The translations under genes and the position numbers were made by a program. From assembly GCA_000004695.1 (NCBI GenBank), contig CM000151.3, forward strand, positions 3,584,001-3,648,000: a DNA stretch of 64,000 nt, in the 5' to 3' direction. Positions 13,027-59,317 of the stretch are shown here, piece after piece. Numbering within the stretch: position 1 is the stretch's first letter; the number at the start of each line of letters is the position of its first letter. The notes under the pieces were generated by a model. That model worked only from the letters and a program-made list of their open reading frames with translations. It had not been told where the DNA came from and did no database searches. The DNA comes from Dictyostelium discoideum (lineage: Eukaryota).

Positions 13027-17879
<4,853 letters not shown>

Positions 17880-17962
17880 TCAGCTTAATAAATTGTAGTT
17901 ACTTTTTTTATAAGAAAGTGGAAAGATGATAAATTTGTTAAAATGTTTAATAGAAAATTAAA
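17880..17962 (+). other. Relic of an alternative (copy-B-type) cytoplasmic-tail coding segment lying 3' of copy A's stop codon.
   Basis: 17917-17960 ataagaaagtggaaagatgataaatttgttaaaatgtttaatagaaaattaaaaaaactc reads IRKWKDDKFVKMFNRKLKKL. This matches copy B's tail ..IIKKWKDDKFVKTFNRKLKKLS* (22161-22230, minus). The preceding TGATCAGCTTAATAAAT matches the post-stop sequence of copies C/D/E. Confidence 0.7.
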
Positions 17963-18317
17963 AAAACTCTATTTAAATTTCCCCCCTTTTTTTTTTTTAT
18001 TGTGCGGATTGGCCAAACCAAACACTTTTTAATATTTTTTTTTAAATTTTTCAAATCAAACACTTTTTTTTTTTATTTTTTTTTTTTATTTGTTTTTTTT
18101 TTTTATTATTTTTTTTTTTTTTATTATTTTTTCTTTTTTCACCTTTTGGTATTGATTTTTTTTTTTTTCAGACCAGAAGTTTAGGTTTTGGCGATAAAAT
18201 CCAATGAACAGTTTTTTGTTTTTAATTAGAGAAAAAAAAAAAAAAAAAAAAAAAAAAAATTAGTACAAATATTTATATTCAATCTAAAATAATAAAATAT
18301 AATACCTCTAGAAGAAA

Positions 18318-21231: not shown

Positions 21232-21769
21232 AAATTAATTGGTTTCAAATTCGAGTACATTACTGCTGTTATTTTAATGCTCAAAATAAACTGTACCCAT
21301 AATGTTAAAAAAATCATGGACCACTCACTTTGATTTTTGGTAACCATATAGAAAAAGAGTTTGGCAATCAAAAAGTTTTAAACAGTGTTGTCAGATTTAA
21401 AAAAATGAAATTGGTTTATGAAATTGAAAAGTGGATTATGTTAGTAAATATTTTTTAAAAAAAAAAAAAAAAAATTTTTTTTAATAATTAATTGCAATCA
21501 ACACCAAATTTACCACCTCTGGGAAGTATTTAAGTGAGGCTGATGTTAAAGTATTCATTCAACATATAGATAATTAAAATTAAGTTTCCCAAGTTTTATT
21601 ATTATACCAATTATAATTTCAAATTAAAAAGTTAGAGAATCTCAATTTCCAGCATACAAAGAAATTTTAATTTACCACCAACTTAACATCAATTCTTTTT
21701 TTTAAATACTATTTTGCATAGAGTAGATACAAAAAAATTAAATGAAATAATCTTGTAGTCTTAATTAAA

Positions 21770-21960
21770 TATCATGGTGAATCAACCTTTACACAAACAT
21801 CAATACCTACTATAATTTATCCAAATACAATGTTAATTAATGATGTCAAACCAACTGAAAAACCATTCATTATCAAAGTACAAGAAAATTCAAAATTCTT
21901 TTCAAATGAATTATCTGTTGTGTTGTTATTGTATCAGTTTCTTTCTTATTTTTTAAAAAA
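21770..21960 (+). pseudogene. Truncated fragment of a tgr-like family gene, inverted relative to the neighbouring copy B.
   Basis: Translates to KYHGESTFTQTSIPTIIYPNTMLINDVKPTEKPFIIKVQENSKFFSNELSVV. This matches copy B's IKYYGESTFTQTSIPTISYPNAMLINDVKPTDKPFIIKVQEAFFSNEF but on the + strand with no flanking exons. Confidence 0.6.
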
Positions 21961-22160: not shown

Positions 22161-24407
22161 TTATGATAGTTTTTTTAATTTTCTATTAAATGTTTTTACA
22201 AATTTATCGTCTTTCCACTTTTTTATAATAAAATAAGAAGCTGCAACAACAACGACAGCAGCAAAAGCAACGGAACCAATAATAATACCAGCGAGTTGAG
22301 AACTTGTTAGTTTTGATTTATTTGATGTACAAATTGAATTATTATCATTATTTGATACTGGTTTACTATCTACTAATACTGAAAAGTCTGGATCAATAAT
22401 TATTGATTGTTTATAATTTGGTATTGTAATACCAATGAATGATTGTGATATTGATGATGTTTGAATTGAGTTCATTTTTGAATCTAATAATTGATTTTCA
22501 ATTGAAGATACTTTTGAATCGATGATTGCTCTTTTAATGAATCTACCATAAAGTGAATGATCATCAATTTGAATTTTAAAGAAGTTTGAATTATCACCAT
22601 CGCTTGTATCTCCAAATACTTTTAATGAACAAGTATCTTTGGAAGTTGATGATTCGAATAATGCTGACATTACAAGTTGAAGACTATTTAATTGATTTAA
22701 AAATTTATATTCTGTAATTTCAATTGTATATTTAATACTTGATGGATTCATTGTTATATTATTATTTGCAAATTGAATGATTGTTGTTTGATTGAACCAT
22801 TCTAAAGTTACAGTAATATTGGTTGTTAATGTATTTGTTGATTTTGTATCACCACTTTGAATACTTGTAAAGTATTGACTTTTAATATTATTAATTGGTG
22901 TATAAATCCATTTATCAAATGTATATAAATTAACTTAATTTGAATTAAAATCTAATTCTCTTAATGATACAATTGAAATCAATGATTTGAATAAATAATT
23001 TGTACTATTTGATGTTTGATTATTGTTATCGATAATTGGTAATTCAGTTGATGGTTGTGATGTATTTGTTGATGGTTGTGGTATAATTATAACTTGTGAA
23101 TTACAATCATTACCAATCCAAGGTGGATAACAAACACATCCACTTGATGAACAATATCCTTGTTTTGATCCACCACATAATGGTTCACCTAAACATGTTT
23201 GAGGTTTATTCGTTGGTATTGGTGATGATGTAGGTGTTGACGATGACGAGTCTATTGAAGAAGATGATGATGATGGATTTGGTGTTGGGGATTCTGTTGG
23301 TAATTCTGTTGGAATTGGTGGTACAAAACGAATATCAAATACTAATGGATAAACAGTGAATTCATTTGAAAAGAAAGCTTCTTGTACTTTGATAATGAAT
23401 GGTTTATCAGTTGGTTTGACATCATTGATTAACATTGCATTTGGATAACTTATAGTTGGTATTGATGTTTGTGTAAATGTTGATTCACCATAATATTTAA
23501 TTAATACTACAAGATTTGAAGAAAAGAAACCAGCACCTATTATCCATAATTCGCCACCACTTGTTGTAATTTGAGAAACTCTATAGATATCTAACCTTTT
23601 AGCAAGTCCTGATGATACTGCTTTCATTGAAAACTTATACGGGAATAGAATTCTTAGTGAGTCGCTTGAATAACCACCATAACAACCACCATTATTAATT
23701 AATCCATAAACACTGAATGTAATTTCTGAAGTGTACAATACACCTCTTGGTAAGTAAACGTAACATTGATAGGTTGCAGAGGTGATATTCTTTGATTTAA
23801 TAATTGTTTCACATTCAAATATTTGAAATTCAATTGCTTCAACGTAAACCATTGGATATTGAAGATCTTTTAATCCACTTTCGTAATCAGTTGCTTCAAA
23901 TGAGAAATATACTTCCATATGTCCATCTGCAGGAATAGCTACTTGTGGTGTAAATAATGTTAAAATTGGTGGTGAACTATCGATACCATCATTTTCACCA
24001 CTACACTTTTTATATAATTTATTTATTGTTGAGTCTAATAAATAATTTATAAATGGGTTATTAACACCACCACCTACAAATGATTCAGATACTGAAAAGT
24101 AGCAACCAATACCTTGAGTATCATATAATTTAACTTGTGTGATAATATAATTTTGAGATGCACATTTACTTGGTAAAGTTATATTAATTTGATAATCACC
24201 ATTAAATTTATCACCTCTTGTTAAATTTTGAGTTGTTAAATGGAATTTATAAGTTGAACTATCCATTTCACCTCTAACTATAATATCAGCATAATCAAAA
24301 CCATTAATTGGATCATCTATTGTAAATTTCCAACCAAATTCATTTGTTGAATTAACCTTTTCAATATTACTAAATATTGGTCCATATCCATCGAAATCTG
24401 TAGATTC

Positions 24408-24489
<82 letters not shown>

Positions 24490-26989
24490 TTGAAAACTAT
24501 TGATAAATTGTATTTATACCTATATTATAGATACTTACTTGATAATGTTACATATAGTTGTGCAGATGATGGTAAGAATTCACTATCTAAAGGTGTTGAA
24601 TAAGAGTTGATAAAGAATCTATATGGAATATGACCAGGTTGGGTATTTGCAGGTATTTTAAATTTAATTTGATACATTGATATTGTTGAATTCCAAGTTG
24701 AAAAGTATAGTGTTGAACTGTTGAAATGGTATTTACTATTCTTTACTAATGTAACTACGTCCATTAACATAAATCCAATTGGTTTTTCATCATTATCCAT
24801 TCTACCTCCATTATATGTAAAATAAACTACATTATCAACTGATTTATTTATTATATCGATAAAATTATTAAAAAATGTAATATTATTAATAAGTAATAAG
24901 TTATTATTATTATTATTATTTTTATTATTATTTTCATAAAATGAATCAATTTTTAAAAGTGGATTAACTGAATAATATTGACCGATTGAATATGTTTCTG
25001 TTTGTCCCAATCTATCGAATACAATAAATTTGTCAATTGGATATCTGTATGTATCTATAACTGCTGCAAATACAATTTCATCACCTATACTTTCACTATC
25101 TATCATTGATTCATATCTTAATGCAATTGTATTGACATCACCAATACCAACAAATGCTTCATATCCATTATCTTTTACCCTAAATTTTAATAAATAATTT
25201 CCTGAAAATAAATGAACCCATTCAAATTTTAAAAGAATTGGTGCATTTACAGTTGGTGCAACTATAATTTTTTTTTTTTTTTTAAAAAAAAAACAGTTTA
25301 TGTTTTAATGATAATAATAATAATAATATAATAAAAATATATATTAATATTAAAAAATTTAAATATTATTATTATTAATTATTATTTTAAATTTATTTAT
25401 AATAAATTATATACATACTTATATTTGAATTAATGTTGATTAGATTTGTTTTATCAACAGTAAAAACTTTTGGTGAACTAATGAGAGCCTTGTATCTCAA
25501 AAATGAAGCGGATACATTATAATTAAAATTATTACCACTTCCAAAACCAAATGGCCATTGAAAATCTTTTGTGAATAAACCAAATGAATAGGTTGTTGTT
25601 AAGAAATTAAATTGATTTGATGTGGTAATTGTAAACATTGATGAATTTAATAAAAAAATACCATCACTATTAAAGTATGTAACAATAAATGGATTTGGAA
25701 CAAAAGGTTCTTTACTAAATTCTAAATAAAATTATAATAATAAAAATTATTATCATTACTATTAAAATTCATTTATAAAGATATATTTTAAAATACTTAC
25801 TTGTAATATTTAAAATTGGTGTTTCATAGATTTTTATTAAAGAATTATTAAACTCTGAATAAATTGATAATTTTGAAGGTGCTGAATTAATAAGTTGACC
25901 TAAATATGTTACAGTTTTGTCATTTTGATATATTGGTGTTATTTGAGAATAGTTGCTAAACCCATTATTAACTTGAATATAAGGTTCATAATCAACACTG
26001 GTTTTATTTATTGTAACTGAATAAAGTGGAGAATTGTCATATCCATATTCAATTATATTTGTGCTTTCACTTGGATAAATTACAACTTTTGAATTGCTTT
26101 CATCAACATTATAATCTAAAAAATAATAAAATTAAACGAGGATTAATTATTTTTTGAAATTTTTAAATAAAAAAAAATAAAAAAATAAAAAAAAAAAATG
26201 AAAAGTGCAAGTTCAAAAAAAAATAAAAAAAAAATACCTACATGAACTAAATGATGATGGAAATTTTACTGTAATATTATTACCATTATTAAATAAAAGT
26301 GAAATTATATTTTCTTTTGTTAAATTTTGAAATTGATAATCAGAAAATGAAAAACTATTTGGAAATGTTGGTTTGACATTGAAAATTCCCCCACTCGAAC
26401 TTAATGATTTTAGTTTATTTTTTAATCCTGTAAATTGAATAATTCCATTCATTCCTGATTTAGATTTTTTAAAATTATTTGTTAATAAAACCTTATAACC
26501 CAAAGAATTAAATTCAATTACTTTTAAAAAAAAAAATTAGCAATTTAAATAATTTTTTAAAATATTAAATTAATTAATTTAATGGGGCAAATACAAACAT
26601 TCACATTTATAAGATATTGAATAATTTTGTTGAATTTTAATACCATCTGAATTTTCATAAGTTGATGTTAATATTAGACTATCATTTCCTAATGGCAAAT
26701 TTAAACCATTAAAAGATGCATATGCATGACCATCTTTAGTTATAAATGATGATGTATCCAAAACAAAAGATTTAGATAATAAAAATGAAAATGAACTTCC
26801 AGAATAATTTATTATATTAACAGTTTGGATAAAAAATTTAAAATTAAAAGAACAAGTTTGTGAATTTGATGAATCAGGATATACTATATACGAATTTGCT
26901 TCTGAAATATCTGTTATGTTCAATGATTGACTATTACAATAATTTAAAAAAATACAATAAAATAAATACAAAACAAAATTTTTATTCAT
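22161..26989 (-). pseudogene. tgr-like copy B, full multi-exon unit with an in-frame nonsense codon (CAA->TAA, + coords ~22933-22935) and a divergent cytoplasmic tail. Exons ~26989..26590, ~26503..26213, ~26125..25800, ~25720..25393, ~25250..24525, 24400..22161.
   Basis: ORFs 26579..26989 (signal peptide MNKNFVLYLFYCIFLNYCNS), 26213..26503, 25393..25638 (WPFGFGSGNNFNYN), 24525..25106, 22935..24266 and 22161..22751 are all in compatible frames. The ORF 22935..24266 ends ..SLRELDFNSN* where paralogs read ..FNSNQVNLYTFDKW (aattcAaattaagtt vs aattcgaatcaagtt). The downstream ORF continues in the same frame. The intron at 24401-24524 is almost pure (ATT)n. The EGF-like module reads CLGEPLCGGSKQGYCSSSGCVCYPPWIGNDC. 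Confidence 0.65.
24405..24488. repeat. (AAT/ATT)n microsatellite forming most of the homologous intron of copy B.
   Basis: Directly visible. Flanked by ..LSSKYL|GTAAGT (24525) and an acceptor before ..DFDGYGPIF (24400). Confidence 0.9.
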
Positions 26990-28282: not shown

Positions 28283-28695
28283 GAAAATGCTAACAGATAT
28301 AAAATGATAATTAAAAATAATGATGGAGAATCAACAATAAGTGGAAAAGGTAAATTATTTATAATAAATTGAAATAATATATCCAATTTTGTTTATTTAA
28401 ATATTTATTTCAATCCAACATTTAAAAATAATTTTTAGCAATCACATTACCAACTCCAATGATCTTTCCACCACCTCTTTTTATTCGTTTTATTCAATAT
28501 AAAACAGATGGTAAACTTTGGAGTAATGAAAATTTTGAAATCAATAGTGGAAAAGTTGAATGCAATGGAGAAGATTATGAACTTGTTCAATCAAGGTGTA
28601 TAACTCAGAAAATTGATGATGATTCAGAAAATGTAATGGACATTAGAATAATGCCATCTAGACCACTCAATAGAGATTTACCATATTTTAATTAA
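28283..28695 (+). CDS. Small hypothetical protein gene (2 exons; ORF 28459..28695 is the main exon).
   Basis: Exon 1 candidate at 28283 (MLTDIK.. / ..MIIKNNDGESTISGKG|GTAAAT), acceptor ttttag at ~28446. ORF MIFPPPLFIRFIQYKTDGKLWSNENFEINSGKVECNGEDYELVQSRCITQKIDDDSENVMDIRIMPSRPLNRDLPYFN*. Confidence 0.3.
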
Positions 28696-28892
28696 ATTTG
28701 AAAATAATAATTCAAATTTTAATTAAATATGATGATACTATCTATTAATTCCTTAGAAAATGTTTATAAAAATAAAAATAAATTTTAATTACCAAATATT
28801 AGTATATACCCAAGCCATAGTTAGAAAATTGTTTTTGTTGTCCTATTTATTTCTTTTTATTTTAATTTTATTTTAATTTTTTTCATCTTATA

Positions 28893-28958
<66 letters not shown>

Positions 28959-29045
28959 TATTATAAAAAGAGAATTTTAGGATTATTAACTAATTTTTTT
29001 TTTTTATTAAAAAGTTGGGACGAAATCAATTATTTATTAAGCCGA

Positions 29046-32000
29046 TCAGTTCATTTTTTGTAATTTGTTTTGTACTTTTCTTTGGAACAAAACCGATTTT
29101 TTGTTTTTCACAACCAAGTAAACAACTGATACAATAACTACAGTGGCAAAAGCAACGGAACCAATAATAATACCAGCGAGTTGAGCACTTGTTAGTTTTG
29201 ATTTATTTGATGTACAAATTGAATTATTATCATTATTTGATACTGGTTTACTATCTACTAATACTGAAAAGTCTGGATCAATAATTATTGATTGTTTATA
29301 GTTTGGTATTGTAATACCAATGAATGATTGTGATACTGATGATGTTTGAACTGAGTTCATTTTTGAATCTAATAATTGATTTTCAATTGAAGATACTTTT
29401 GAATCGATGATTGCTCTTTTAATGAATCTACCATAAAGTGAATGGTCATCAATTTGAATTTTAAAGAAGTTTGAATTATCACCATCGCTTGTATCTCCAA
29501 ATTCTTTTAATGAACAAGTATCTTTGGAAGTTGATGATTCGAATAATGCTGACATTACAAGTTGAAGACTATTTAATTGATTTAAAAATTTATATTCTGT
29601 AATTTCAATTGTATATTTAATACTTGATGGATTCATTGTTATATTATTATTTGCGAATTGAATGATTTTTGTTTGATTGAACCATTCTAAAGTTACAGTA
29701 ATATTAGTTATTAATGGATTTGTTGATTTTGTATCACCACTTTGGATACTTGTAAAGTATTGACTTTTAATATTATTAATTGGTGTATAAATCCATTTAT
29801 CAAATGTATATAAATTAACTTGATTCGAATTAAAATCTAATTCTCTTAATGATACAATTGAAATCAATGATTTGAATAAATAATTTGTACTATTTGATGT
29901 TTGATTATTGTTATCGATAATTGGTAATTCAGTTGATGGCTGTGATGTATTTGTTGATGGTTGTGGTATAATTATAACTTGTGAATTACAATCATTACCA
30001 ATCCAAGGTGGATAACAAATACATCCACTTGGCGAACAAAAACCTTGTTTTGATCCACCACATACTGGTTCACCTAAACATGTTTGTGGTTTATTCGTTG
30101 GTATTGGTGATGATGTAGGTATTGGTGTTTGTGTTGGTGTTGGATCTATAAAATTATAAACTATTGGATTGACAGTGAATTCATTTGATGTGAGTGGTAG
30201 GTCTGAAACTTTGATAATGAATGGTTTATCAGTTGGTTTAATATTTTTAATAAACATTGCACTCCAATAAACTGTAGTTGGTACTATTATTTGATTAAAG
30301 CTTGAGTCTCCTTCATATTTTACATATACTTGTTGCGTTGAATTGAAACATCTACCTGTTATCCATAACTCGCTATCAAATGAATTAAATTTACTGCATT
30401 TTGTGATTTGTATTACTTTATTAAAAGCTATATTATTAATTGTATATATAAAAGATAAATTATTTAGTGATTCGCTTGAATATCCGCTATAATAACCGCC
30501 ATTATTAATGAATCCATAAACACTGAAAATAATATCTGAATTGTATCCAAATCCTATTGGTAAATTGATGGTACATGTATAGGTTGCAGCTGTTTCGTTT
30601 ATTGAAATAATAGATGATACACATTCAAGTGTTTGTGCTTCTATTGTTTGAATGTAAACAATTGGATATTGTTTATCTTTTAAACCACTTTCAATATCTA
30701 CTGCTTCAAAGTTGAATAATAAATATTGAGTACCATCACTATTTTGTCTTAATATTGGTATGAATGAAGTTAAAATTGGTGGTGAACTATCGATACCATC
30801 ATTTTCACCACTACATGTTTTATATACTTTATTTATTGTTGGATCTGATAAATAATTTATAAATACATTTTTAATACCATCTATTCCATTAACTACTGAA
30901 AATTCACCTGAATAACCTTGAGTATCATATAATTTAACTTGTGTGATAATATAATTTTGAGATGCGCATTTACTTGGTAAAGTTATATTAATTTGATAAT
31001 CACCATTAAATTTATCACCTCTTGTTAAATTTTGAGTTGTTAAATGGAATTTATAAGTTGAACTATCCATTTCACCTCTCACTATAATATCACCATAATC
31101 AAAACCATTAATTGGATCATCTATTGTAAATTTCCAACCAAATTCATTTGTTGAATTAACCTTTTCAATATTACTAAATATTGGTCCATATTCATCGAAA
31201 TGTTTAGAAACAACTATTAGTTGTGATGATAAAGGAAACATATCATTTGTTATTGCTCGAAAACCACACCATAAAAAGAAACTGAGTGGACCAGGTCTAG
31301 TGTTTGCAAGAACTGTAAATTTAATTTGATATTTTGAAATTGTTGAATTCCAAGTTGCAAACTTTAAACTATTGAAATCTATATTAGAATCTGTGGTATT
31401 ACTATTTAAAATAAAAAGTGAGAATGAAGCTGAAGGATTACTATGGGTTTGAGTACCATTATAATTGAAATAAATTATATTATCAACTGATTTATTTGCC
31501 ACATCAATATAATTTTTTAAAAATGTAATATTTTCTATTAAAACAGGTAATATTGTTGGAGCTTTATAATCTATAACTGAAAATGGATTAATTGAAAAAT
31601 AACTATTTAAATAATAAACTTGACTCTTTTTAAAAGTTGAATCTCCAATAGATAAAAATTGAAAACCACGCCCTTTAAAATCATAAACAATTTCATATAT
31701 ATTATTTTCAGCATCTACCAATGATTCTTGTCTATATATTCCATTTGCATCATCATCATTAATTTGAATGAAAAGATTATAACCAATCTCTTTATATGTT
31801 GGTTTTATTTTAATTCTTAATAAATGAAATTGTTCAAAAAGGTATATAACTTTACATGATTCTAATTCTAATGGTAGTAATGATGAATTTATTGCTATAT
31901 TTAAAAATATTTTTTAATGTTAGTAATTGTTTTGAGTGTGTGTGTGTTGTTCGGTAGTAGTTTAGAATATTAATGATTTTATATGTGTATATACTTACTA

Positions 32001-32717
32001 TTGTCTATTTGAATATTTAAATTTCGATTATTAAAGGTCAATAAACCAAAATTGTTTGGCGAATATGTGGGTTTTAAAAATGATGCTTTTAAAGAATAGT
32101 TTGAATTTTGACCACTTTCAAACCCAAATGGCCAACTAAAGATATATTGAAAACCTAAATTCCATCTAAAATAAAATGAAAATGTTTCATACTGGGTATT
32201 TGAATTGAATCCAAATGAAAACATTGTTGAGTTTAATGTTAAAGGTACTGATATTGGTTCAACAATGACATTTGGAAATGTAAAATTAAAATTATCTATT
32301 CATTTTTTTAAAAAAAAAAATTAAAATAATGTCAATAGAAATTAATCTTTGATATATGTATATATTAAAAAGTAATTAAATTTAATTTTAACAAACTTAC
32401 TAAAAACATTTAAATTTGGATCACTATAAATTGTTGTTAATGAGTTATTAATTTTTGCGAAAATAGAATATTGTGTATGAACTTGGCCAATGAATGTTGT
32501 ACCTTTTCCTGGTATTTCATATGATGGAGTTGGAATATTATTTGTAATATCTTCAATAAATAATGGATCATATTCAATGGTTTCATTTAATGTAATAGAG
32601 TAAACTGGTGAACAATTAATTCCAAATTCTTTAACATCAGTTTGGTTTGGGTAGATCTTAAATGTAATATCCTTTTCTTCTACATTCATTTCTTAAAATA
32701 ATAATAATTTTAATATC

Positions 32718-32748
<31 letters not shown>

Positions 32749-33105
32749 ATTATTATACTTACTTGAAAAATATAAAAAAGGAATTGTAATATTTACAGTA
32801 TATTGTTGATCTGAACTATCCAAGAATCTTATTGATATATTAAACTCTGATATTAAATTATTTTTATCAAATCCTACACCAACAAAGAATAAATTTGAAT
32901 ATCCCTCTAAGCTCATTGCAACATTTGAAGGACTTGAAACATTTAGCAAATTTAGTGGATATTTTAAACCTGCAAAGTGTATTGTTGCTGTATAAGGAAA
33001 AAGTGTAAATTTATAATTGTTACTTGTTAAAACATTGACCTTCATCAATTCTCGAGGGATATCTATAAAATTGATATTAAAGTTAATTATTTTTTTTTTT
33101 TTTTT

Positions 33106-33150
<45 letters not shown>

Positions 33151-33571
33151 GTTTTATATACAAACATTCACAAGAATAAGTTATTGAGATATTTTTATAA
33201 ATAATTTGATCATTTTGCAATGTTGCATTTATTAATAATGTATAAGTATTTGGTGTTTTATTTTTAACTATAACTGTGGCAATTCCTCCATATTCTTTCT
33301 TATTGATTAGAGAGACTGTTGCATCTGTGTCATTGGTGAAAACCATCAAATTTGTTCCACTATTCGAGTAATCAACTATTGCAATCGAAAAAACATATGA
33401 ACAAATTTTTTGATTTGTTGAATCTGGGTATCTATTATAAGCACCTTCTTCTTGATTTGTAATATCATACAATTGAAACTGTCCTTCAACCCCAATTATT
33501 AAATTATTTATTGTTGAAAAGCTATTTATTATCGCCAATGTTAGGATTATCAATAAAATTTTCTTTATCAT
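29046..33571 (-). CDS. tgr-like type-I transmembrane receptor, copy C (apparently intact). Exons 33571..~33160, ~33048..32746, ~32689..32342, ~32224..31979, ~31908..29046.
   Basis: Signal peptide MIKKILLIILTLAIINSFS. Exon ORFs 32746..33048, 32342..32689 and 31979..32224 contain WPFGFESGQNSNYSLK. The 891-aa last-exon ORF 29046..31721 extends upstream to an acceptor at ~31908. It carries EGF-like CLGEPVCGGSKQGFCSPSGCICYPPWIGNDC, TM AGIIIGSVAFATVVIVSVVYLVV and tail KNKKSVLFQRKVQNKLQKMN*. There is no intron at the position where A and B have the microsatellite intron. Confidence 0.8.
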
Positions 33572-34472: not shown

Positions 34473-37400
34473 TCAGTTAATTGTTTGTAATTTCTTTTGT
34501 ACTTTTCTTTGGAATTTTTTTGATTTTCTGTTTTTCACAACCAAGTAAACAACTGATACAATAACTACAGTGGCAAAAGCAATAGAACCAATAATAATAC
34601 CAGCGAGTTGAGCACTTGTTAGTTTTGATTTATTTGATGTACAAATTGAATTATTATCATTATTTGATACTGGTTTACTATCTACTAATACTGAAAAGTC
34701 TGGATCAATAATTATTGATTGTTTATAGTTTGGTATTGTAATACCAATGAATGATTGTGATACTGATGATGTTTGAATTGAGTTCATTTTTGAATCTAAT
34801 AATTGATTTTCAATTGAAGACACTTTTGAATCGATGATTGCTCTTTTAATGAATCTACCATAAAGTGAATGATCATCAATTTGAATTTTAAAGAAGTTTG
34901 AATTATCACCATCGCTTGTATCTCCAAATACTTTTAATGAACAAGTATCTTTGGAAGTTGATGATTCGAATAATGCTGACATTACAAGTTGAAGACTATT
35001 TAATTGTTTTAAAAATTTATATTCTGTAATTTCAATTGTATATTTAATACTTGATGGATTCATTGTTATATTATTATTTGCGAATTGAATAATTGTCGTT
35101 TGATTGAACCATTCTAAAGTTACAGTAATATTGGTTGTTAATGTATTTGTTGATTTTGTATCACCACTTTGAATACTTGTAAAGTATTGACTTTTAATAT
35201 TATTAATTGGTGTATAAATCCATTTATCAAATGTATATAAATTAACTTGATTTGAATTAAAATCTAATTCTCTTAATGATACAATTGAAATCAATGATTT
35301 GAATAAATAATTTGTACTATTTGATGTTTGATTATTGTTATCGATAATTGGTAATTCAGTTGATGGTTGTGATGTATTTGTTGATGGTTGTGGTATAATT
35401 ATAACTTGTGAATTACAATCATTACCAATCCAAGGTGGATAACAAATACATCCACTTGATGAACAAAAACCTTGTTTTGATCCACCACATACTGGTTCAC
35501 CTAAACATGTTTGTGGTTTATTCGTTGGCATTGGTGATGATGTAGGTATTGGTGTTTGTGTTGGTGTTGGATCTATAAAATTATAAACTATTGGATTGAC
35601 AGTGAATTCATTTGATGTGAGTGGTAGGTCTGAAACTTTGATAATGAATGGTTTATCGGTTGGTTTAATATTTTTAATAAAAATTGCACTCCAATAAACT
35701 GTAGTTGGTACTATTTGATTAAAGCTTGAGTCTCCTTCATATTTTACATATACTTGTTGCGTTGAATTGAAACATCTACCTGTTATCCATAACTCGCTAT
35801 CAAATGAATTAAATTTACTGCATTTTGTGATTTGTATTACTTTATTAAAAGTTATATTATTAATTGTATATATAAAAGATAAATTATTTAGTGATTCGCT
35901 TGAATATCCGCTATAATAACCGCCATTATTAATGAATCCATAAACACTGAAAATAATATCTGAATTGTATCCAAATCCTATTGGTAAATCGATAGTACAT
36001 GTATAGGTTGCAGCTGTTTCGTTTATTGAAATAATAGATGATACACATTCAAGTGTTTGTACTTCTATTGTTTCAATATAAACAACTGGATATTGTTTAT
36101 CTTTTAAACCACTTTCAATATCTACTGCTTCAAAGTTGAATGATAAGTATTGAGTACCATCACTATTTTGTTTTAATATTGGTATGAATGAAGTTAAAAT
36201 TGGTGGTGAACTATCGATACCATCATTTTCACCACTACATGTTTTATATACTTTATTTATTGTTGGATCTGATAAATAATTTATAAATACATTTTTAATA
36301 CCATCCATTTCACCAACTACATAAAATTCACCTGAAAAGCCTTGAGTATCATATAATTTAACTTGTGTGATAATATAATTTTGAGATGCACATTTACTTG
36401 GTAAAGTTATATTAATTTGATAATCACCATTAAATTTATCACCTCTTGTTAAATTTTGAGTTGTTAAATGGAATTTATAAGTTGAACTATCCATTTCACC
36501 TCTCACTATAATATCACCATAATCAAAACCATTAATTGGATCATCTATTGTAAATTTCCAACCAAATTCATTTGGTGAATTAATTTTTTCAATATTACTA
36601 AATATTGGTCCATACGCATCGAAATGTTTAGAAACAATAAATAGTTGTGATGATAAAGGAAACATATCATTTGTTATTGAAGATTGATAACCACACATTA
36701 AAAAGAAACTGAGTGGACCAGGTCTAGTGTTTGCAAGAACTGTAAATTTAATTTGATATTTTGAAATTGTTGAATTCCAAGTTGCAAACTTTAAACTATC
36801 GAAAACTATATTAGATTCTGTGGTATTACTATTTAAAATAAAAAGTGAGAATGAAGCTGAAGGATCACTATGGGCTTGAGTACCATTATAATTGAAATAA
36901 ATTATATTATCAACTGATTTATTTGCCACATCAATATAATTTTTTAAAAATGTAATATTTTCTATTAAAACAGGTAATATTGTTGGAGCTTTATAATCTA
37001 TAACTGAAAATGGATTAATTGAAAAATAACTATTTACATAATAAACTTGACTCTTTTTAAAAGTTGAATCTCCAATAGATAAAACTGAAAATCCACGCCC
37101 TTTAAAATCATAAACAATTTCATATATATTATTTTCAGCATCTACCAATGATTCTTGTCTATATATTGCATTTGCATCATCATTAATTTGAATGAAAAGA
37201 TTATAACCAATCTCTTTATATGTTGGTTTTATTTTAATTATTAATAAATGAAATTGTTCAAAAAGGTATATAACTTTACATGATTCTAATTCTAATGGTA
37301 GTAATGATGAATTTATCGCTATTTTTAAAAATATTTTTTAATGTTAGTACTTGTTTGTGTGTGGGGTGTGTGTGTGTGTTATTCAGTAGTAGTTTAGAAT

Positions 37401-38976
37401 ATTAATGATTATATATGTATATTAGAATATTAATGATTATATGTATATATACTTACTATTGTCTATTTGAATAATAAAATTTTCATTATTAAAGGTCAAT
37501 AAACCAAAATTGTTTGGCGAATACGTGGGTTTTAAAAATGATACTTTTAAAGAATAGTTTGAATTTTGACCACTTTCAAACCCAAATGGCCAACTAAAGA
37601 TATATTGAAAACCTAAATTCCATCTAAAATAAAATGGAAAAATTGCATACTGAAAACTTGAAGTGAACCCAAATGAAAACATTGTTGAGTTTAATATTAA
37701 AGGTAATGATACTGGTTCAACAATGACATTTGGAAATGTAAAATTAAAGTTTTCTATTCATTTTTTTTTAAATAATGTCAATAGAAATTAATCTTTGATA
37801 TATGTATATATTAAAAAGTAATTGAATTTAATTTTAAAAAACTTACTTGAAACATTTAAATTTGGGTTACTATAAATTGTTGTTAATGAGTTATTAATTT
37901 GTGCGAAAATAGAATATTGTGTATAAACATAACCAATGAATGTTGTACCTTTTCCTGGTATTTCATATGATGGAGTAGGCATACGACGTGAAACATCTTC
38001 AATAAATAATGGATCATATTCAATGGTTTCATTTAATGTAATAGAGTAAACTGGTGAACAATTAACTCCAAGTACTGTAACATCGGTTTGGTTTGGATAG
38101 ATCTTGAATGTAATATCCTTTTCTTCTACATTCATTTCTTATAATAATAATAATTTTAATATCTTATTTTTTTTTTTTTAAATTTAATTATTATACTTAC
38201 TTGAAAAATAAAAAAAAGGAATTGTAATATTCACAGTATATTGTTGATCTGAACTATCCAAGAAAAGTATTGATATATTAGACTCTGGTACAAAATTATA
38301 TTTATTAAAATCTACACTAACATATAATAAATTTGAATAAAAATTATTTATGTTTATCCAAGAAGGACTTGAAACATTTAGATAAGATATTTGATATTTT
38401 AAACCTGTAAAGTGTATTAATGTTGTATAAGGATTAATTGTAAATTTATAATTGTTACTTGTTAAAACATTGACCTTCATCAATTCTCGAGGGATATCTA
38501 TATAAAATTGGTATTGAAATTAATTAATTATTTATTTTTGTTTTTTTAATTTTAAATTTTATATACAAACATTCACAAGAATAAGTTATTGAGATATTCT
38601 TATAAATATTTTGACCATTTTGCAATGTTGCATTTATTAATAATGTATAAGTATTTGGTGTTTTATTTTTAACTATAACTGTGGCAATTCCTCCATATTC
38701 TTTCCTAATGATTTGATAGACCATTGCATCTGTATCATTGGTGAAAACATTCAAAGTTGCCCCACTATTCGAGTAATCAACTATTGCAATCGAAAAAACA
38801 TATGAACAAATTTTTTGATTTGTTGAATCTGGGTATCTATTATAAGCACCTTCTTCTTGATTTGTAATATCATACAATTGAAACTGTCCTTCAACCCCAA
38901 TTATTAAATTATTTATTGTTGAAAAGCTATTTATTATCACCAATGTTAGGATTATTAATAAAATTTTCTTTATCAT
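34473..38976 (-). CDS. tgr-like type-I transmembrane receptor, copy D (apparently intact, near-identical tandem duplicate of C). Exons 38976..~38530, 38483..38184, 38135..37788, 37682..37437, ~37322..34473.
   Basis: Same exon architecture and >95% nucleotide identity to copy C over most of the 5.4-kb unit. Signal peptide MIKKILLIILTLVIINSFS. 891-aa last-exon ORF 34473..37148. Tail KNRKSKKFQRKVQKKLQTIN*. Confidence 0.8.
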
Positions 38977-39205: not shown

Positions 39206-39253
<48 letters not shown>

Positions 39254-40289: not shown

Positions 40290-40625
40290 TTATAAGTGAT
40301 TCGCTTGAATATCCGCTATAATAACCGCCATAGTCAATATTGGTCCATATTCATTGAAATGTTTAGAAACAATTAATAGTTGTGATGATAAAGGAAACAT
40401 ATCATTTGTTATTGAAGATTGATAAGTACTAATTAAAAAGAAACTGAGTGGATCAGGTCTAGTATTTGTAAGAACTGTAAATTTAATTTGATTTTTTGAA
40501 ACTATTGAAATATATATTAGATCATATCTGTATTACTACTATTTAAAATAAAAAGTGAGAATGTAGCTGAAGATCACTGTGGCCTGAGTATCATTATAAT
40601 TGAAATAAATTATATTATCAACTCC
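40290..40625 (-). pseudogene. Degenerate, internally deleted fragment of the tgr-like large exon.
   Basis: 40296-40330 (gtgattcgcttgaatatccgctataataaccgcc) matches D 35888-35925. 40335-40620 matches D ~36590-36915 (caatattggtccata..gaaatgtttagaaacaat..agttgtgatgataaaggaaacatatcatttgttattgaagattgataa..) with substitutions and small indels. No open frame. Confidence 0.7.
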
Positions 40626-42925: not shown

Positions 42926-45900
42926 TCAGTTCATTTTTTGTAATTTGTTTTGTACTTTTCTTTGGAATAAATCTGATTTTCTGTTTTTCACGACCAAGTA
43001 AACAACTGATACAATAACTACAGTGGCAAAAGCAACGGAACCAATAATAATACCAGCGAGTTGAGCACTTGTTAGTTTTGATTTATTTGATGTACAAATT
43101 GAATTATTATCATTATTTGATACTGGTTTACTATCTACTAATACTGAAAAGTCTGGATCAATAATTATTGATTGTTTATAATTTGGTATTGTAATACCAA
43201 TGAATGATTGTGATACTGATGATGTTTGAATTGAGTTCATTTTTGAATCTAATAATTGATTTTCAATTGAAGATACTTTTGAATCGATGATTGCTCTTTT
43301 AATGAATCTACCATAAAGTGAATGGTCATCAATTTGAATTTTAAAGAAGTTTGAATTATCACCATCACTTGTATCTCCAAATTCTTTTAATGAACAAGTA
43401 TCTTTGGAATTTGATGATTCGAATAATGCTGACATTACAAGTTGAAGACTATTTAATTGATTTAAAAATTTATATTCTGTAATTTCAATTGTATATTTAA
43501 TACTTGATGGATTCATTGTTATATTATTATTTGCAAATTGAATGATTGTCGTTTGATTGAACCATTCTAAAGTTACAGTAATATTAGTTGTTAATGTATT
43601 TGTTGATTTTGTATCACCACTTTGAATACTTGTAAAGTATTGACTTTTAATATTATTAATTGGTGTATAAATCCATTTATCAAATGTATATAAATTAACT
43701 TGATTTGAATTAAAATCTAATTCTCTTAATGATACAATTGAAATCAATGATTTGAATAAATAATTTGTACTATTTGATGTTTGATTATTGTTTTCTATAA
43801 TTGGTAATTCAGTTGATGGTTGTGATGTATTTGTTGATGGTTGTGGTATAATTATAACTTGTGAATTACAATCATTACCAATCCAAGGTGGATAACAAAT
43901 ACATCCACTTGATGAACAAAAACCTTGTTTTGATCCACCACATACTGGTTCACCTAAACATGTTTGTGGTTTATTCGTTGGTATTGGTGATGATGTAGGT
44001 ATTGGTGTTTGTGTTGGTGTCTCTGTTGGTGTTTCTGTTGGTGTTTCTGTTGGTGTTTCTGTTGGTGTTAAGGGAATCGTAAAATTATAAACTATAGGAA
44101 TAACAGTGAATTCATTTGATGTGAGTGGATAGTCCGAAACTTTGATAATGAATGGTTTATCAGTTGGTTTAATATTTTTAATAAACATTGCACTCCAATA
44201 AACTTTATTTGGTACTATTATTTGATTAAATCCAGGTTCTCCAAAATATTTTACATATACTTGTTGTTTTGTTGAATTGAAACCTCTACCTGTTATCCAT
44301 AACTCGCTATCACCAGATACAAATTTGCTACAGGTATTAATTTGTATTACTTTGTTTATGGATATATCGCTCATTGAATATATAAAAGATAAACTATTTA
44401 GTGATTCGCTTGAATATCCGCTATAATAACCGCCATTATTAATGAATCCATAAACACTGAAAATAATATCTGAATTGTATCCGAATCCATTTGGTAAATT
44501 GATAGTGCATTTATAGGTTGAAGTTGTTTCATTTATTGAAATAATAGATGATACACATTCAAGTGTTCTTAAATCTGTTGTTTGGATATAAACAATTGGA
44601 TATTGTTTATCTTTTAAACCACTTTCAATATCTACTGCTTCAAAGTTGAATGATAAGTATTGAGTACCATCACTATTTTGTTTTAATATTGGTATGAATG
44701 AAGTTAAAATTGGTGGTGAACTATCGATACCATCATTTTCACCACTACATGTTTTATATACTTTATTTATTGTTGGATCTGATAAATAATTTATAAATAC
44801 ATTTCTAATACCATTAAATCCACTGGATACTGAAAATTCACCTAAATAACCTTGAGTATCATATAATTTAACTTGTGTGATAATATAATTTTGAGATGCA
44901 CATTTACTTGGTAAAGTTATATTAATTTGATAATCACCATTAAATTTATCACCTCTTGTTAAATTTTGAGTTGTTAAATGGAATTTATAAGTTGAACTAT
45001 CCATTTCACCTCTAACTATAATATCAGCATAATCAAAACCATTAATTGGATCATCTATTGTAAATTTCCAACCAAATTCATTTGTTGAATTAACTTTTTC
45101 AATATTACTAAATATTGGTCCATATTCATCGAAATGTTTAGATTCAATAATTAATTGAGAAGATAAAGGTAAGAAATCACTTATTAATGAACTTGAATAA
45201 CCACAAAGTAAAGCAAAACCAAGTGGACCAGGTCTAGTATTTGCAGGAACTGTAAATTTAATTTGATATTTTGAAATTGTTGAATTCCAAATTGAAGTTG
45301 TAATATTATCATAATCTACGACTCCAGTTACTTTAAACTCATGAGATAAAATTAAAAATGAGAAATTAATTGTATCATCTTTAGGTTCTTGAGTACCATT
45401 ATAATTGAAATAAATTATATTATCAACTGATTTATTTGTTACATCAATGTTATTTATTAAATAAGTTACATTACCAATTAAAACTGAAATCATATCAGAA
45501 TATTTAAAATCAAGTTTTAAAAGTGGATCAATTGAATAATATTGAAATGGATTATAAAATTGAGATTGTCTTGAATAAGAATCACCAATATTTAAACTAT
45601 TTAATATACCTTCATGAAAATTTAAAACAGTTTCATATATATTGTTTTCGATATCAGGCATTGAGTCATATCTTAATACTTGATTAACATTATCATTAAT
45701 TTTAATAAAAGTACTGTACCCTTTACTTTGATAAATTGGTTTTATTTTAATCTTAAATAAATAAACTTGATTATATAAATGAGTAGAATTAAATGATTCT
45801 AATTCTAATATTGGTAATGTATTTATATCCACAACTATTATTTATAATAAAATTATTTTAATTAATATAATAATTTTATTAAATAATAATAAAAAATAAA

Positions 45901-47044
45901 AAAAAACAATTACCTTGTTGATTACTAATTTGCGTTAAAGAATGATCTTGATTGAAATAAAGTGAGTTGTAGGGATTTACAGAGATTTCAGATTGTAGAA
46001 ATGATGACTTGAATGAATAATTTGAATTATGACCACTTTCGAAACCAAAAGGCCATTTATAACTATTTGAAAAACTTTCAAACCATCTAATTGAATAATT
46101 GAATAAATCAAATTTTTTAGTTGAATTAAATTTAATTGAAAATATTGATGAAAGTGAAGGTAATGGTGGTGAATAATCAATTTGAAAAGATGGAAATTTT
46201 CTATCAATATTATCTATATATTTAAAAAACAATAATAATAATATTATTAAAATTATTAACAAAAATGATTTTTTAAAATAATAAAAATAAACAATAATAA
46301 AAAAAAATAATAATAATAATAATAAACTTACATGAGACCTTTAAAAATTGATAATAAATTGTAGTTAAGGTGCCATTAATTTGAGCACCAATTGAATAAT
46401 CGGAAGAAACTTGACCAAGGAATGTTGTACCTTTTCCTGGCATTTCATAAGATGCCCATGGATTTAAACCTATATTTTCATTAATAAACAATGGGTCGCT
46501 TAATCCAATTGTTTCATTTAATGTAATAGAATAAATTGGTGGACAAATAAATCCAAATTCTATAACATTTGTTTGATTAGGATAAATTTTAAATGTAATA
46601 TCCTTTTCTTTTACATTTGAATCTGAATTTTTAAAATTATAATTTAATATATTAATTTTTAAAATAATAATAATAATAAAAACAATAATAATAATAACAA
46701 TAATTACTTACTTGAATAAATTAAACTTGGAATTGTATAATTTAATGAATAAGTATTATTTGAACTATCCATGAACCATAGTGATATATTAAAATCTGGT
46801 TTAATAAATCCATTAAATTCGTCACCAATATGATAGACAAATGGCCTTATATTATCAACTTTTACATTATACGGTTTGTCAACTTGTAATTGACCCAATG
46901 GGTATTTTAATCCTGTAATGTACATTATTGTTGAAAATGGGTAAATTGGATGCTTATATTTACCAGTATGATATAAATTTATTTTCATTGATTCTCGTGG
47001 AATATCTATTTAATTTATTTAATTATTTAATTAATTATTTATTT

Positions 47045-47103
<59 letters not shown>

Positions 47104-47521
47104 CTTAAAAAAATAATCAATACAAACATTGACAAGAATAATTAATTATAATACTACTATAAATTGATGTATCATTATCATATTCTGCCGTAATTAATAA
47201 TGAATAATCATTTGGTGATTTAGTATTTACATAAATTGGAAGAACTTGACTTGAAATATTTTTAAATGCTGGTGTTGAAATTGTTGCGTCTGAATCGTTG
47301 GTTTTTATTTTTAATTGAACTCCAGTATCTGAAGTATCGGTTACAAATATTAAGAAAAAAAAATTACAATATTTGTCATTTGTATTTGTTGGATATTTAT
47401 TATATGAGTATTCTTCACTAGAAACATCATAAATTTGAATTGCTGGATTTCCTTCAACCCTAAAAATTTGTAATATTACTATTATTATTAGAATTAATAA
47501 TAGTATTCGTTTTCTGATCAT
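42926..47521 (-). CDS. tgr-like type-I transmembrane receptor, copy E (apparently intact, more divergent N-terminal modules). Exons 47521..~47120, 46988..~46704, ~46491..46273, ~46262..45879, ~45841..42926.
   Basis: Signal peptide MIRKRILLLILIIIVILQIFRVEG. Modules end ..YSCQCLY and ..WPFGFESGHNSNYSFK. 968-aa last-exon ORF 42926..45832 carries an extra (TPTE)4 linker (44018-44070, 12-bp tandem gtttctgttggt). The EGF-like module is CLGEPVCGGSKQGFCSSSGCICYPPWIGNDC. The TM/tail is identical to copy C/D type (..KNRKSDLFQRKVQNKLQKMN*). Confidence 0.8.
47046..47103. repeat. Poly(T) homopolymer tract of ~55 nt in an intron of copy E.
   Basis: Directly visible. Generates the spurious ORF 46928..47116. 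Confidence 0.9.

Positions 47522-47864: not shown

Positions 47865-47867
<3 letters not shown>

Positions 47868-47952
<85 letters not shown>
47868..47952. repeat. (AAT)n microsatellite (~28 units) in the intergenic region upstream of copy E.
   Basis: Directly visible. Confidence 0.95.
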
Positions 47953-47954
<2 letters not shown>

Positions 47955-52916: not shown

Positions 52917-53454
52917 ATGTCATTATTTAAAATTAAAACTATCACTATTGATCATACTGAAAAAAACATCAGAATTTCAAGGTAATATATTTAATTTAAT
53001 GGTTATAGTTTTTATTTATTTAAATATTAATTTTTTTATTTTTTTTTTATTTTTACTTTTTATTTATTTATTTGTTTATTTTTATTTTTTTATTACAGAT
53101 CAGTTACTATTAATGAAAATAGTGATAGATATATTTGTATACCAGATGAAATTAGTAATGAAGAAAGTGTTGAAATTTTAGATAGTGTTGAGAATGGTTC
53201 AACATTATTACACTCTGAGAAACCATCATTTCCAGAAGATTTAAAATATTTTAAAAATAAAAAATTTAAAATTCAAATGGTTGAAGGTAATCATATTGTT
53301 GGTAAATTAATTGAATCAAGTAATGAAACTAAATCAATTACTTTAAATGTTGAATCTTATCATTCTTTTAAAAGTGATAATTCATTACCAAATGGTATGA
53401 TTAAATTAGAACATTCAAAAATTTTATCATACTTTTTATTATCATCTGATAATG

Positions 53455-53553
<99 letters not shown>

Positions 53554-55205
53554 TTAACAATGATGATTTCTATATTAAAAATAATTGTGAAAGAATTACA
53601 AAAATTGAAATTAATAATAATAAGGTTAAAAGAGATATAATTGTAAATTATAATATTCATATTCAAAAACATGGTGCAGAATTTGGTCATTTTATTCACT
53701 TGGTTAAAGGTTTAAAATGTGGTAAACAATTATATTGTAAAGCAAATTTAAAAGATGATTTACCAATTACAATTGTAACAGAATATAAATGGAAACCATT
53801 TATAGATATTGGTTCAAGTGATAATGTACAACTTAGAATTAAAACATTGGCTGAAAAGAAAAAAGTGATTTATAAAATTGATAATTTGAAATGTTATAAT
53901 AATATCACAACTAATATTCAAATTAATAAATTTCAAACAACTGCAAATCGTGCAATATTGGTTTATCCAGGTGGTCCACTCCAAGTATCAATTTACTTTA
54001 AAAATAATTCAAAATTATTTTTAACTAAAACTAGATGTAAATTAATTCAAAATGATTTAATTGAAAATGAAAATGAAAATAAAGAACAAACTGATGATGA
54101 CGATGAAGATGATGACGAAGATGAAGATGAGGATAGTGATGAGGGTGACGATATTGCTTTTAATTCTCCACCATCTGAAATACCACCTAGTATCAGCAGT
54201 GTCAGTAGTAATAGAAATAATAATAATATTAACATTAAAACTAGTGCAAATCCAATAAGAAGAAATGTTAATTCGGGTTTATTCGCTTGCCAATTATTAG
54301 GTATTGTTAAACCAAATTCAATTGGTATTATTTCATTTCTTATTCCAACTGAAAAATTAAAACTTTTTAAAGATATTGGTCATCAAGCATTATTTGAAAC
54401 AAGAGGAAAAGAATCAAATATTAATCAAATTAAAGTATCAAGTGTTTTCACAATATTAGAGACTGAAACATTAAATAAAATTACTTATCAAGTTGCAAAT
54501 ATTAGTCAACATTCAATTAAACTCATTATTTACACTGGTTATGGTATTATTGGTACTGAAACACCATTGAATGAGTACACCAAAGTATTAATAACACCAA
54601 CTATCAATGAAAATAATAACAACAACAACAATAGCAATAGAGTCATTGAAAAGATTGATGAAACTTTATATTTAATTCAAAATTGTGTTGGTTTTTCAAT
54701 TGTAAACTTTGAATTATACAATTCAAAATGTAAACAATTAATGACAAATTCAAGATTACCACAAGATGCATTGAATCTTTTAAATAATAATGGTATTTCA
54801 ATTACATATTCTCCAAATTTATTTAAATGTCATGATTTAACACATTTGGGTAGAAGTGCACAAGATTCATTATTCAAATTTTTAGGTTCAATAACATTGG
54901 AAGATAAAACATCATCATACTTTAATAAACCATATTTACCAGCTCCACTTACAAATTATTTATTTGATCAAACAATTTCATCAAAATCCTCTGGTACTAG
55001 TGTACTCTCAAATATGGTTAGTTGTAATCCTCGTGCTTTAAAATTAGGTTTATTTGATAGTGAAAATCCACAATCACAACAAAATGATAAACATAACAAC
55101 ACCAACATTCCAAGTAGTTCAAAATATAGTAGCAGTTTTATTGAGGGCACTTTTAGTTCAAGAGAAGACAATCATTCAAAAAAGTCTTCACGCATCATAT
55201 CTTAA
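52917..55205 (+). CDS. Hypothetical protein with poly-Asn tract and acidic D/E stretch. Two exons (52917..52981, 53099..55205).
   Basis: Exon 1 MSLFKIKTITIDHTEKNIRISR with donor ..TCAAG|GTAATA (phase 2). Acceptor ..ttattacag| at 53098 restores the frame of ORF 53277..55205 (open from 53100). Contains (AAT)33 coding N33 (53455-53555) and DDDDEDDDEDEDEDSDEGDD. No recognisable domain. Confidence 0.55.
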
Positions 55206-57351: not shown

Positions 57352-57807
57352 TTTAATATGGGGTTCTATTTTATAATATAAAAAAAAATAATATAAAATA
57401 AAAAAAAAAAAAAAAAAAAATAAAAGTTAATAGAAAAAAAAAAAAAAAAAAAAAAAAAACAAAAAAAAGATAGAAAAAAAAAAAAAATAATAAAAAAAAT
57501 AATTAAACAAAAAAAAAAAAAAAAAAAAAATTATTATAATTTGGGTTTTAACTTTACATAGATATATTTTTACATATAAAAAATTAACTTCCACCCACAC
57601 ACCCACATTCTCAATAGATTCAAAAACACCTAACCACAAAAAAAAAAAAAAAAAAAAATAATATAAAAAAAATTAAAATTAAAAATAGAAAAAGACAAAG
57701 GGTAGTATAATTTATTGAAAAAATAAGAAAATAATTATTTAATAAATTATTTTATATTTATTTTTTATATTGATTTGATTTATTTTTATTTTTTTTTATT
57801 TTTTTTA

Positions 57808-59317
<1,510 letters not shown>

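Follow-up and report, generated by a model that had tools for sequence, protein, structure and literature searches.

The stretch of DNA analysed here, hereafter the window, comprises 64,000 nucleotides of chromosome 2 of Dictyostelium discoideum AX4 and has a G+C content of 22%. It contains five neighbouring ComC-like genes annotated as "EGF-like domain-containing protein", referred to here as A to E, which all lie within ~31 kb (Table 1). Gene A is located on the strand opposite to that of B–E and is convergent with B. The 891-residue open reading frame at 29046–31721 of the reverse strand, which is part of gene C, is 100% identical to XP_644341 of D. discoideum AX4, and the model of gene D has a translation that is exactly that of the annotated AX4 protein. 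The subject of this study is the mosaic nature of these genes: two segments of the last exon are near-identical in all five copies, and the coding sequence around them is, in most pairs, strongly diverged. An independent assembly (GCA_054883475.1, locus L004) matches positions 19037–43585 of the window (24.5 kb) at 99.845%. Together with the three other genomes described below, it rules out an assembly artefact as the cause of this pattern.

The domain order is the same in all five proteins. Pfam detects DUF7035, DUF7034, DUF7949 and ComC_SSD, in that order, with scores of 123–130, 72–100, 54–58 and 43–68 bits, respectively, all above the curated cut-offs of 24–27. DUF7949 is a 35-residue EGF-like module, and ComC_SSD is the ComC supersandwich domain of ~220 residues. 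ComC_SSD is followed in each protein by a hydrophobic helix and then by a short basic tail. Topology was assigned by inspection only: the N-terminus is hydrophobic (helix 2–25 in the structural model described below), and the hydrophobic stretch GIIIGSVAFATVVIVSVVYLVV is followed by KNKK. The gene products are predicted to be type I membrane glycoproteins, which consist of beta-sandwich modules, DUF7035, DUF7034, DUF7949, the ComC supersandwich, a transmembrane (TM) helix and a short tail.

An earlier note on this DNA, made by inspection of the letters, had described the 5' exons as immunoglobulin (Ig)-like. This description holds for the fold. The N-terminal 663 residues of C were modelled with AlphaFold from a 12-sequence alignment. 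The model is all-beta, with a mean predicted local distance difference test score (pLDDT) of 75, and its Foldseek matches, at E-values between 1e-9 and 1e-5, include the leptin receptor, contactin-2, LILRB3 and filamin Ig-like domains. As modelled, the N-terminal region is Ig-like at the fold level only, where it resembles multi-Ig/FnIII ectodomains. Pfam finds neither an Ig domain nor a TIG domain (at E <= 0.01 for TIG) in the five proteins, only DUF families. Membership of the tgr (Tiger) family, suggested by the composition and by the Ig-like, EGF and TM elements named in the earlier note, was rejected on the absence of IPT/TIG domains in the Pfam results. Cadherin matches are also absent from the Pfam results for the five proteins, and each gene ends in its own tail and stop codon. 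Mutants of comC are defective in intercellular communication during development. In PMC4931340, the gene is listed only as developmentally essential, with the remark that it "Has EGF domains".

A self-BLAST search, together with sliding windows along a MAFFT alignment of all five copies, was used to map identity along the genes. The 3' block is 94–100% identical in all ten pairs of copies; directly upstream of it, identity is 55–78% for A or B against the others and further upstream it is 30–60%. This segment, here called block 2, is 966 nt long in every copy, with 15–24 differences per pair (97.5–98.4% identity in all ten pairs) and 41 variable columns. In C, it encodes SPIPTNKPQTC, the EGF-like DUF7949, a short Pro/Ser/Thr-rich stalk, ComC_SSD, the juxtamembrane sequence and the first half of the TM helix (GIIIGSVAFA). 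The largest part of the block is the supersandwich domain and not the EGF module. A second homogenised segment, block 1, comprises 285 nt, lies ~0.9 kb upstream of block 2 and is 94.7–99.3% identical in all pairs. It corresponds to the first ~95 codons of DUF7035 (FDxYGPIFSNIEK...KLYDTQG).

The earlier note had proposed a single homogenised unit, made up of EGF module, TM segment and tail and more than 95% identical across the five genes. There are two blocks instead of one. The EGF module and the first half of the TM helix do belong to the 3' block, but the cytoplasmic tail lies outside the homogenised tract. In the last ~99 nt, B is unrelated to the other copies (57–60% identity), and A, C, D and E are mutually 88–95% identical. 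As the segments originally delimited took in these nucleotides, the figure of more than 95% applies to pairs without B (96.7–98.0%) and fails for pairs with B (93.9–94.7%).

The edges of the blocks are sharp at the nucleotide level. Block 1 of A and B is found directly 3' of a microsatellite-filled intron. The 5' edge of block 2 adjoins a variable Pro/Thr/Ser linker encoded by short repeats, and its 3' edge falls midway through the TM helix. The introns and intergenic DNA of the window repeatedly contain long (TAA/AAT)n microsatellites, with 16–42 units each.

Table 1. Coordinates of the ComC-like genes, homogenised blocks and associated features (positions in the window)
Feature	Position	Strand	Remarks
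Gene A	13027-17879	+	XP_644336, 1408 aa, 6 exons; exact spliced mapping of annotated protein
Gene A exons	13027-13420, 13535-13822, 13971-14297, 14385-14702, 14801-15481, 15661-17879	+	
Gene B	22161-26989	-	XP_644339; 7 exons as annotated
Gene C	29046-33571	-	XP_644341, 1380 aa, 5 exons; exact spliced mapping
Gene C exons	33571-33166, 33062-32763, 32691-32401, 32295-31999, 31894-29046	-	
Gene D	34473-38976	-	XP_644342.2, 1378 aa, 5 exons; model transferred from C, intact
Gene D exons	38976-38571, 38497-38201, 38137-37847, 37753-37457, 37318-34473	-	
Gene E	~42926-47521	-	5 exons, all frames open; from tblastn with the strain-FIW ortholog and the open reading frame list
Gene E exons (approximate)	47521-47129, 47003-46710, 46647-46333, 46214-45915, 45835-42926	-	
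Block 1, A	15663-15947	+	Starts 2 nt into exon 6
Block 1, B	24111-24395	-	Starts 2 nt into exon 6
Block 1, C	30915-31199	-	Inside exon 5
Block 1, D	36339-36623	-	Inside exon 5
Block 1, E	44849-45133	-	Inside exon 5
Block 2, A	16815-17780	+	966 nt
Block 2, B	22260-23225	-	966 nt
Block 2, C	29145-30110	-	966 nt
Block 2, D	34572-35537	-	966 nt
Block 2, E	43025-43990	-	966 nt
Non-homogenised end, C	29046-29144	-	Second half of TM helix, tail, stop codon
Equivalent ends	A 17781-17879, B 22161-22259, D 34473-34571, E 42926-43024		
(TAA)34 microsatellite	15499-15600		Intron directly 5' of block 1 in A
(AAT)27 microsatellite	24408-24489		Counterpart in B
12-nt repeat, 5.7 copies	44002-44069		PTET linker directly 5' of block 2 in E
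Low-complexity linker	30097-30143		Analogous linker in C
(TAA/AAT)n microsatellites	13831-13957, 15499-15600, 24408-24489, 28888-28964, 39206-39253, 47867-47954, ~53449-53586		
In-frame TAA, block 2 of B	22935-22937	-	CAA (Gln) in the other four copies; alignment column 292, unique to B
Degenerate sixth-copy fragment	40336-40623	-	Between D and E; 82% identity to D 36601-36915; stops and internal deletion
Fossil B-type cytoplasmic tail	17899-17968	+	3' untranslated region of A; 70 nt, 89% identity to the B tail coding sequence 22168-22236

Synonymous divergence (dS) and its ratio to nonsynonymous divergence (dN/dS, or omega) were calculated by the method of Nei and Gojobori. In block 2, all ten pairs have a dS of 0.040–0.067 and a dN/dS of 0.17–0.40; in block 1, dS is 0.019–0.139 in all ten. 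Between the blocks, dS is 0.41–0.65 for A or B against any other copy (dN/dS 0.56–0.94), 0.17 for C or D against E (dN/dS about 0.5) and 0.03 for C against D (dN/dS 0.74). The near-identity therefore extends to synonymous sites, as the earlier note had claimed, with dS inside the blocks being roughly ten-fold lower than in the adjacent coding sequence. Mismatch density in block 2 was compared with that in the inter-block region by Fisher tests; p is about 1e-14 for C or D against E and ranges from 1e-62 to 1e-82 when A or B is one of the pair. Uniform identity along the genes, which the earlier note had named as the refuting pattern, is found in the C/D pair only, where the same test shows no difference (p = 0.62) and where similarity covers the whole length of the genes and 4.6 kb in all, including intergenic DNA.

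The strong divergence reported for the upstream exons was confirmed by the N-terminal protein identities, which are 32–35% among A, B and C. For E, the ortholog of strain FIW was compared with C in place of AX4 E itself, and has an N-terminal identity of 49%. The earlier note had proposed to compare dN/dS between the N-terminal exons and the 3' block. In the C/D pair, omega is 1.07 over the N-terminal 664 codons, 0.17 in block 1, 0.74 between the blocks, 0.23 in block 2 and 1.10 in the tail. In addition, dS between C and D is higher in block 2 (0.051) than in the inter-block region (0.030), which argues that C and D each received sequence from other copies.

Low omega values in the blocks (0.17–0.40) are what would be expected if strong purifying selection on protein or RNA were acting alone, without any exchange of sequence, and the blocks are also the best conserved parts of distant, unlinked paralogs. 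The ten-fold reduction extends, however, to synonymous divergence, and gene B provides a second objection. Block 2 of B carries an in-frame stop codon, which is also present in the independent assembly. The annotated last intron of B (22934–23005) is 72 nt long, in frame and merely skips this codon, and the region is coding in all four paralogs. From its sequence, gene B is probably a pseudogene, or else encodes a truncated, TM-less secreted form. Despite the nonsense codon, B is as homogenised as the other copies and has variants in common with A, D and E. The similarity of the blocks is therefore independent of selection on that copy. As selection alone also fails to explain the comparison between genomes and the relic in gene A, which are both described below, we consider it highly improbable as the whole explanation.

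Further support for exchange between the copies came from orthologous clusters in D. citrinum (L001), D. cf. discoideum ACTFIZ (FIZ; L002) and the divergent D. discoideum strain ACTFIW (FIW; L003). Flanking housekeeping genes were used for calibration, and give a dS of 0.07 between AX4 and FIW and of about 0.145 between AX4 and D. citrinum. For block 2, dS is 0.025–0.113 within a genome, 0.09–0.14 between AX4 and FIW and 0.24–0.31 between AX4 and D. citrinum. In a bootstrapped neighbour-joining tree, block 2 sequences form clades by genome: A–E of AX4 (98%), FIW (95%), FIZ (100%) and the three D. citrinum copies (100%). In the inter-block tree, by contrast, the discoideum-type genomes form ortholog clades, namely E-type, C/D-type and A+B together with D. 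citrinum copy cit_3, at 100% each. In this tree, cit_1 and cit_2 of D. citrinum group as a pair, and their orthology rests on the N-terminal region. Substitutions in block 2 that are common to all three D. citrinum copies are absent from every D. discoideum copy (for example, NKPQICLGDPVCGGTNQGYCSPTGCVCYQPW versus NKPQTCLGEPVCGGSKQGFCSSSGCICYPPW), and the block edges are at the same positions in D. citrinum as in D. discoideum.

As block 2 follows the genome and its flanks largely follow the ortholog, the duplications are older than the split between the species and the blocks are more recent than the divergence of AX4 from FIW. Only in the block do the paralogs of one genome resemble one another more than orthologs from different genomes do, which is the defining signature of concerted evolution. 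Purifying selection produces neither this relationship nor the species-specific changes common to all paralogs. The same result bears on the proposal that the genes are recent duplicates with simply young blocks, in which the 5' parts were later replaced by unrelated sequence through cassette or exon shuffling. Sharp edges, and the position of block 1 at the start of an exon in A and B, would be consistent with such replacement. The diverged parts are nevertheless orthologous across D. discoideum strains and D. citrinum, and in every genome they therefore predate the blocks. Each lineage would have needed a replacement of its own, which is conversion in effect, and this explanation is given very little credence here.

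A similar mosaic is found at the protein level in other clusters and species. In D. citrinum (FIV_5019–5022), identity is 39–64% in the N-terminal region, 99–100% in block 1, 88–93% between the blocks, 98–99% in block 2 and 47–81% in the tail. The corresponding values in D. dimigraforme are 50%, 95%, 71%, 98% and 91% for the 0114xx genes, and 59–85%, 88–96%, 73–84%, 85–94% and 30–91% for the 0102xx genes. The C/D-type copies vary in number, with two in AX4, three in FIW (ACTFIW_011807, 011808 and 011809) and one in D. citrinum. Within each genome, these copies are mutually closer than they are to the C/D-type copies of other genomes, even outside the blocks. This closeness is due either to longer-tract conversion or to independent duplications among the most similar copies.

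How the exchange occurs can be read in part from block 2 itself. The 13 parsimony-informative sites within it split the five copies in eight different ways, 44 of the 78 pairs of sites are incompatible in the four-gamete test and the Hudson-Kaplan minimum number of recombination events (Rm) is 6. These conflicts imply that block 2 was assembled from several short patches and not in one sweep. The earlier note had offered unequal crossing-over as an alternative to conversion. As the main homogeniser, with conversion being minor, reciprocal unequal crossing-over in a tandem array is supported by the varying number of C/D-type copies and by the 4.6 kb over which C and D are alike. Gene A is inverted, however, and a crossover with A would invert the interval instead of homogenising it. 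Block 1 is a 285-nt island between diverged flanks and would need double crossovers. Old, locus-specific sequence is retained in the inter-block and N-terminal regions, and an Rm of 6 within 966 nt indicates short patches. Since unequal crossing-over can homogenise neither the inverted copy nor the island, the geometry of the cluster argues that non-crossover conversion is required. Unequal crossing-over is thus unlikely to be the main homogeniser, although it may well act too, on copy number.

A footprint of one transfer is preserved in gene A. Just past its current stop codon, the 3' untranslated region contains a fossil cytoplasmic tail of the B type (Table 1), which still reads RKWKDDKFVKMFNRKLKKL. 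This relic is directly preceded by a C/D/E-type TM end, tail and stop codon and by ~10 nt of donor 3' untranslated region. In the unconverted region, A is the sister of B, and the original tail of A was therefore of the B type. A tract from a C/D/E-type donor would have run past the stop codon into A and displaced the old tail. Purifying selection cannot create such a fossil, and a crossover would have swapped the tails, instead of placing the new one ahead of the old.

Taken together, the dS values, the genome-wise clades of block 2 and the reticulate sites bear out the central claim of the earlier note, that recurrent gene conversion homogenises the membrane-proximal region while the distal modules diversify. 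The five genes are, with a probability of about 0.9, old ComC-like paralogs in which two segments of the last exon are kept near-identical by recurrent, short-tract, non-reciprocal interlocus gene conversion. Conversion may be confined to the blocks as the flanks are too diverged (<80% identity) for heteroduplex formation. At the 5' edges, indel-rich, low-complexity linkers or a microsatellite-filled intron could form an additional barrier. Selection would tolerate or favour a uniform membrane-proximal ectodomain (omega 0.17–0.40), and would permit or favour divergent N-terminal modules and tail (omega about 1 in the C/D pair).

Several observations weigh against this interpretation or limit it. 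The G+C content of third codon positions (GC3) is not raised in the blocks (0.05–0.11, versus 0.10–0.14 between them), and the signature of GC-biased conversion is therefore absent. A run-length permutation on polymorphic sites, in the style of the GENECONV check that the earlier note had proposed, is significant for AB, AD, AE, BE, CD and DE and weak for BC (p = 0.30), BD (p = 0.29) and CE (p = 0.18); the weak results are due to the small number of polymorphic sites in homogenised blocks. This test was replaced by the mismatch-density tests, dS, the four-gamete test with Rm and the cross-genome trees. The E-type and C/D-type copies of D. citrinum group together in the inter-block region, and the limits of the tracts are therefore not absolute. 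In distant, unlinked paralogs, the blocks have an amino-acid identity of 77–80%, versus 48% elsewhere, so that purifying selection contributes to the similarity at the protein level, in the same modules as conversion. Finally, the transfer event is known only from an indirect footprint, the fossil tail of A.

The cluster also contains debris and unrelated sequences. A degenerate fragment of a sixth copy, which jumps from FNEYGPI to GGYYSGYSSESL and is not homogenised, is located between D and E. Between the 3' ends of A and B, positions 21749–21919 hold a 171-bp inverted copy (89.5% identity) of the B inter-block sequence 23352–23516, which may be the remnant of another inverted copy. A small gene of the Dicty_CAD family of calcium-dependent cell adhesion molecules is found between C and B at ~28324–28715 of the forward strand (14870–15261 in L004). 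In D. citrinum, this gene comes after the third ComC-like gene, and the cluster has therefore been rearranged between the species. The cluster of D. cf. discoideum ACTFIZ carries an insertion between its two C/D-type copies (L002, 15582–20937), made up of a DDE_Tnp_4 transposase gene and a further open reading frame. An unrelated paralog pair in the window, the tandem flavin amine-oxidase genes at 57504–59461 and 60652–62579 of the reverse strand, is 87% identical over about 2 kb.

The AX4 proteins of A, C and D each have two EAL accessions for one identical sequence, and gene B has a second, near-identical AX4 entry (XP_645075.2). This would fit a position of the window within the large chromosome-2 duplication of the AX3/AX4 laboratory strains. 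The flanks of FIW, at a dS of about 0.07 from AX4, are far above the species-wide mean diversity of D. discoideum, which is given as about 0.003 in a preprint (bioRxiv 10.1101/2025.10.22.684067).

The cluster is a clean example, from outside the animals and plants and compared between several genomes, of concerted evolution that is restricted to certain domains. It is instructive for its two islands, its inverted participant, its fossil footprint, its nonsense-bearing participant and its edges that are conserved across species and clusters; the inverted participant and the footprint constrain the mechanism. There are practical consequences as well. For the Dictyostelium ComC-like family, the two blocks are not a reliable basis for trees, orthology calls, dN/dS scans or variant calling from short reads, and an annotation problem is exposed in gene B, where a 72-nt pseudo-intron masks the in-frame stop. 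That the mosaic recurs in other clusters and species points to the EGF-supersandwich module as a unit of common function and to the N-terminal modules as the part that varies, which offers a testable lead on this family. A more speculative proposal, which we think rather unlikely, is that ComC-like arrays serve social amoebae, alongside tgr, as another diversified system of recognition or adhesion at the cell surface. Conversion would then actively maintain the uniformity of the common EGF-like module, supersandwich and outer half of the TM helix across all clusters and species, leaving the N-terminal beta-sandwich modules and cytoplasmic tails free to diversify. If so, the arrays would be a convergent, conversion-based counterpart of the constant/variable design of protocadherins. 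Selection for a shared docking or cis-interaction surface would, in that case, account both for tract edges that are conserved across species and for the return of the mosaic in independent clusters.

Regional concerted evolution by gene conversion is a known process, and the ComC-like cluster is a further documented case. No prior report of it in the ComC-like family was found in the literature searched, which lay outside the original comC papers. Within Dictyostelium, the nearest comparison is with tgr genes: for the mosaicism of tgrB1, tgrB2 and tgrBps, interlocus conversion or recombination has been proposed in the same preprint (bioRxiv 10.1101/2025.10.22.684067). Both systems consist of clustered surface-receptor paralogs and pseudogenes with beta-sandwich ectodomains, and in tgr intermingled paralog clades are read as the result of such exchange. 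The protein families differ, however, as no IPT/TIG domain is detected in the ComC-like genes. In addition, conversion is discussed there as a generator of diversity, whereas in the ComC-like genes it acts as a domain-restricted homogeniser. Tandem paralogs of HMA4 in Arabidopsis halleri are also reported to have diverged as mosaics under interlocus gene conversion (bioRxiv 10.1101/2025.10.29.685298), likewise with converted and unconverted segments along one gene.

The closest parallel is with the clustered protocadherins. Noonan et al. (2004) are said to have described regional gene conversion in these genes. In a comparison of fugu, zebrafish and human, the 3' part of the variable exon (EC4–6 and TM) is >99% identical among neighbouring paralogs, EC1–3 are divergent and carry the phylogenetic signal, and raised GC3 is used as support for conversion (PMC1852091). 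In both systems, tandem arrays encode adhesion-type, type I membrane receptors, the type I topology being a predicted one in the ComC-like proteins, and a 3' part that covers the membrane-proximal ectodomain and TM segment is >97–99% identical among neighbours, synonymous sites included. The divergent N-terminal modules hold the orthology signal in both, and homogenisation is lineage-specific. There are also differences. The ComC-like genes have no shared constant exons, each keeping its own diverged tail, and have two separate converted islands instead of one 3' region. Their cluster includes an inverted participant and has no rise in GC3. The families are unrelated, with ComC-like domains in place of cadherin repeats, and the host is an amoebozoan. 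By analogy, the ComC-like cluster is best regarded as an analogue of the clustered protocadherin locus and not as a member of it.

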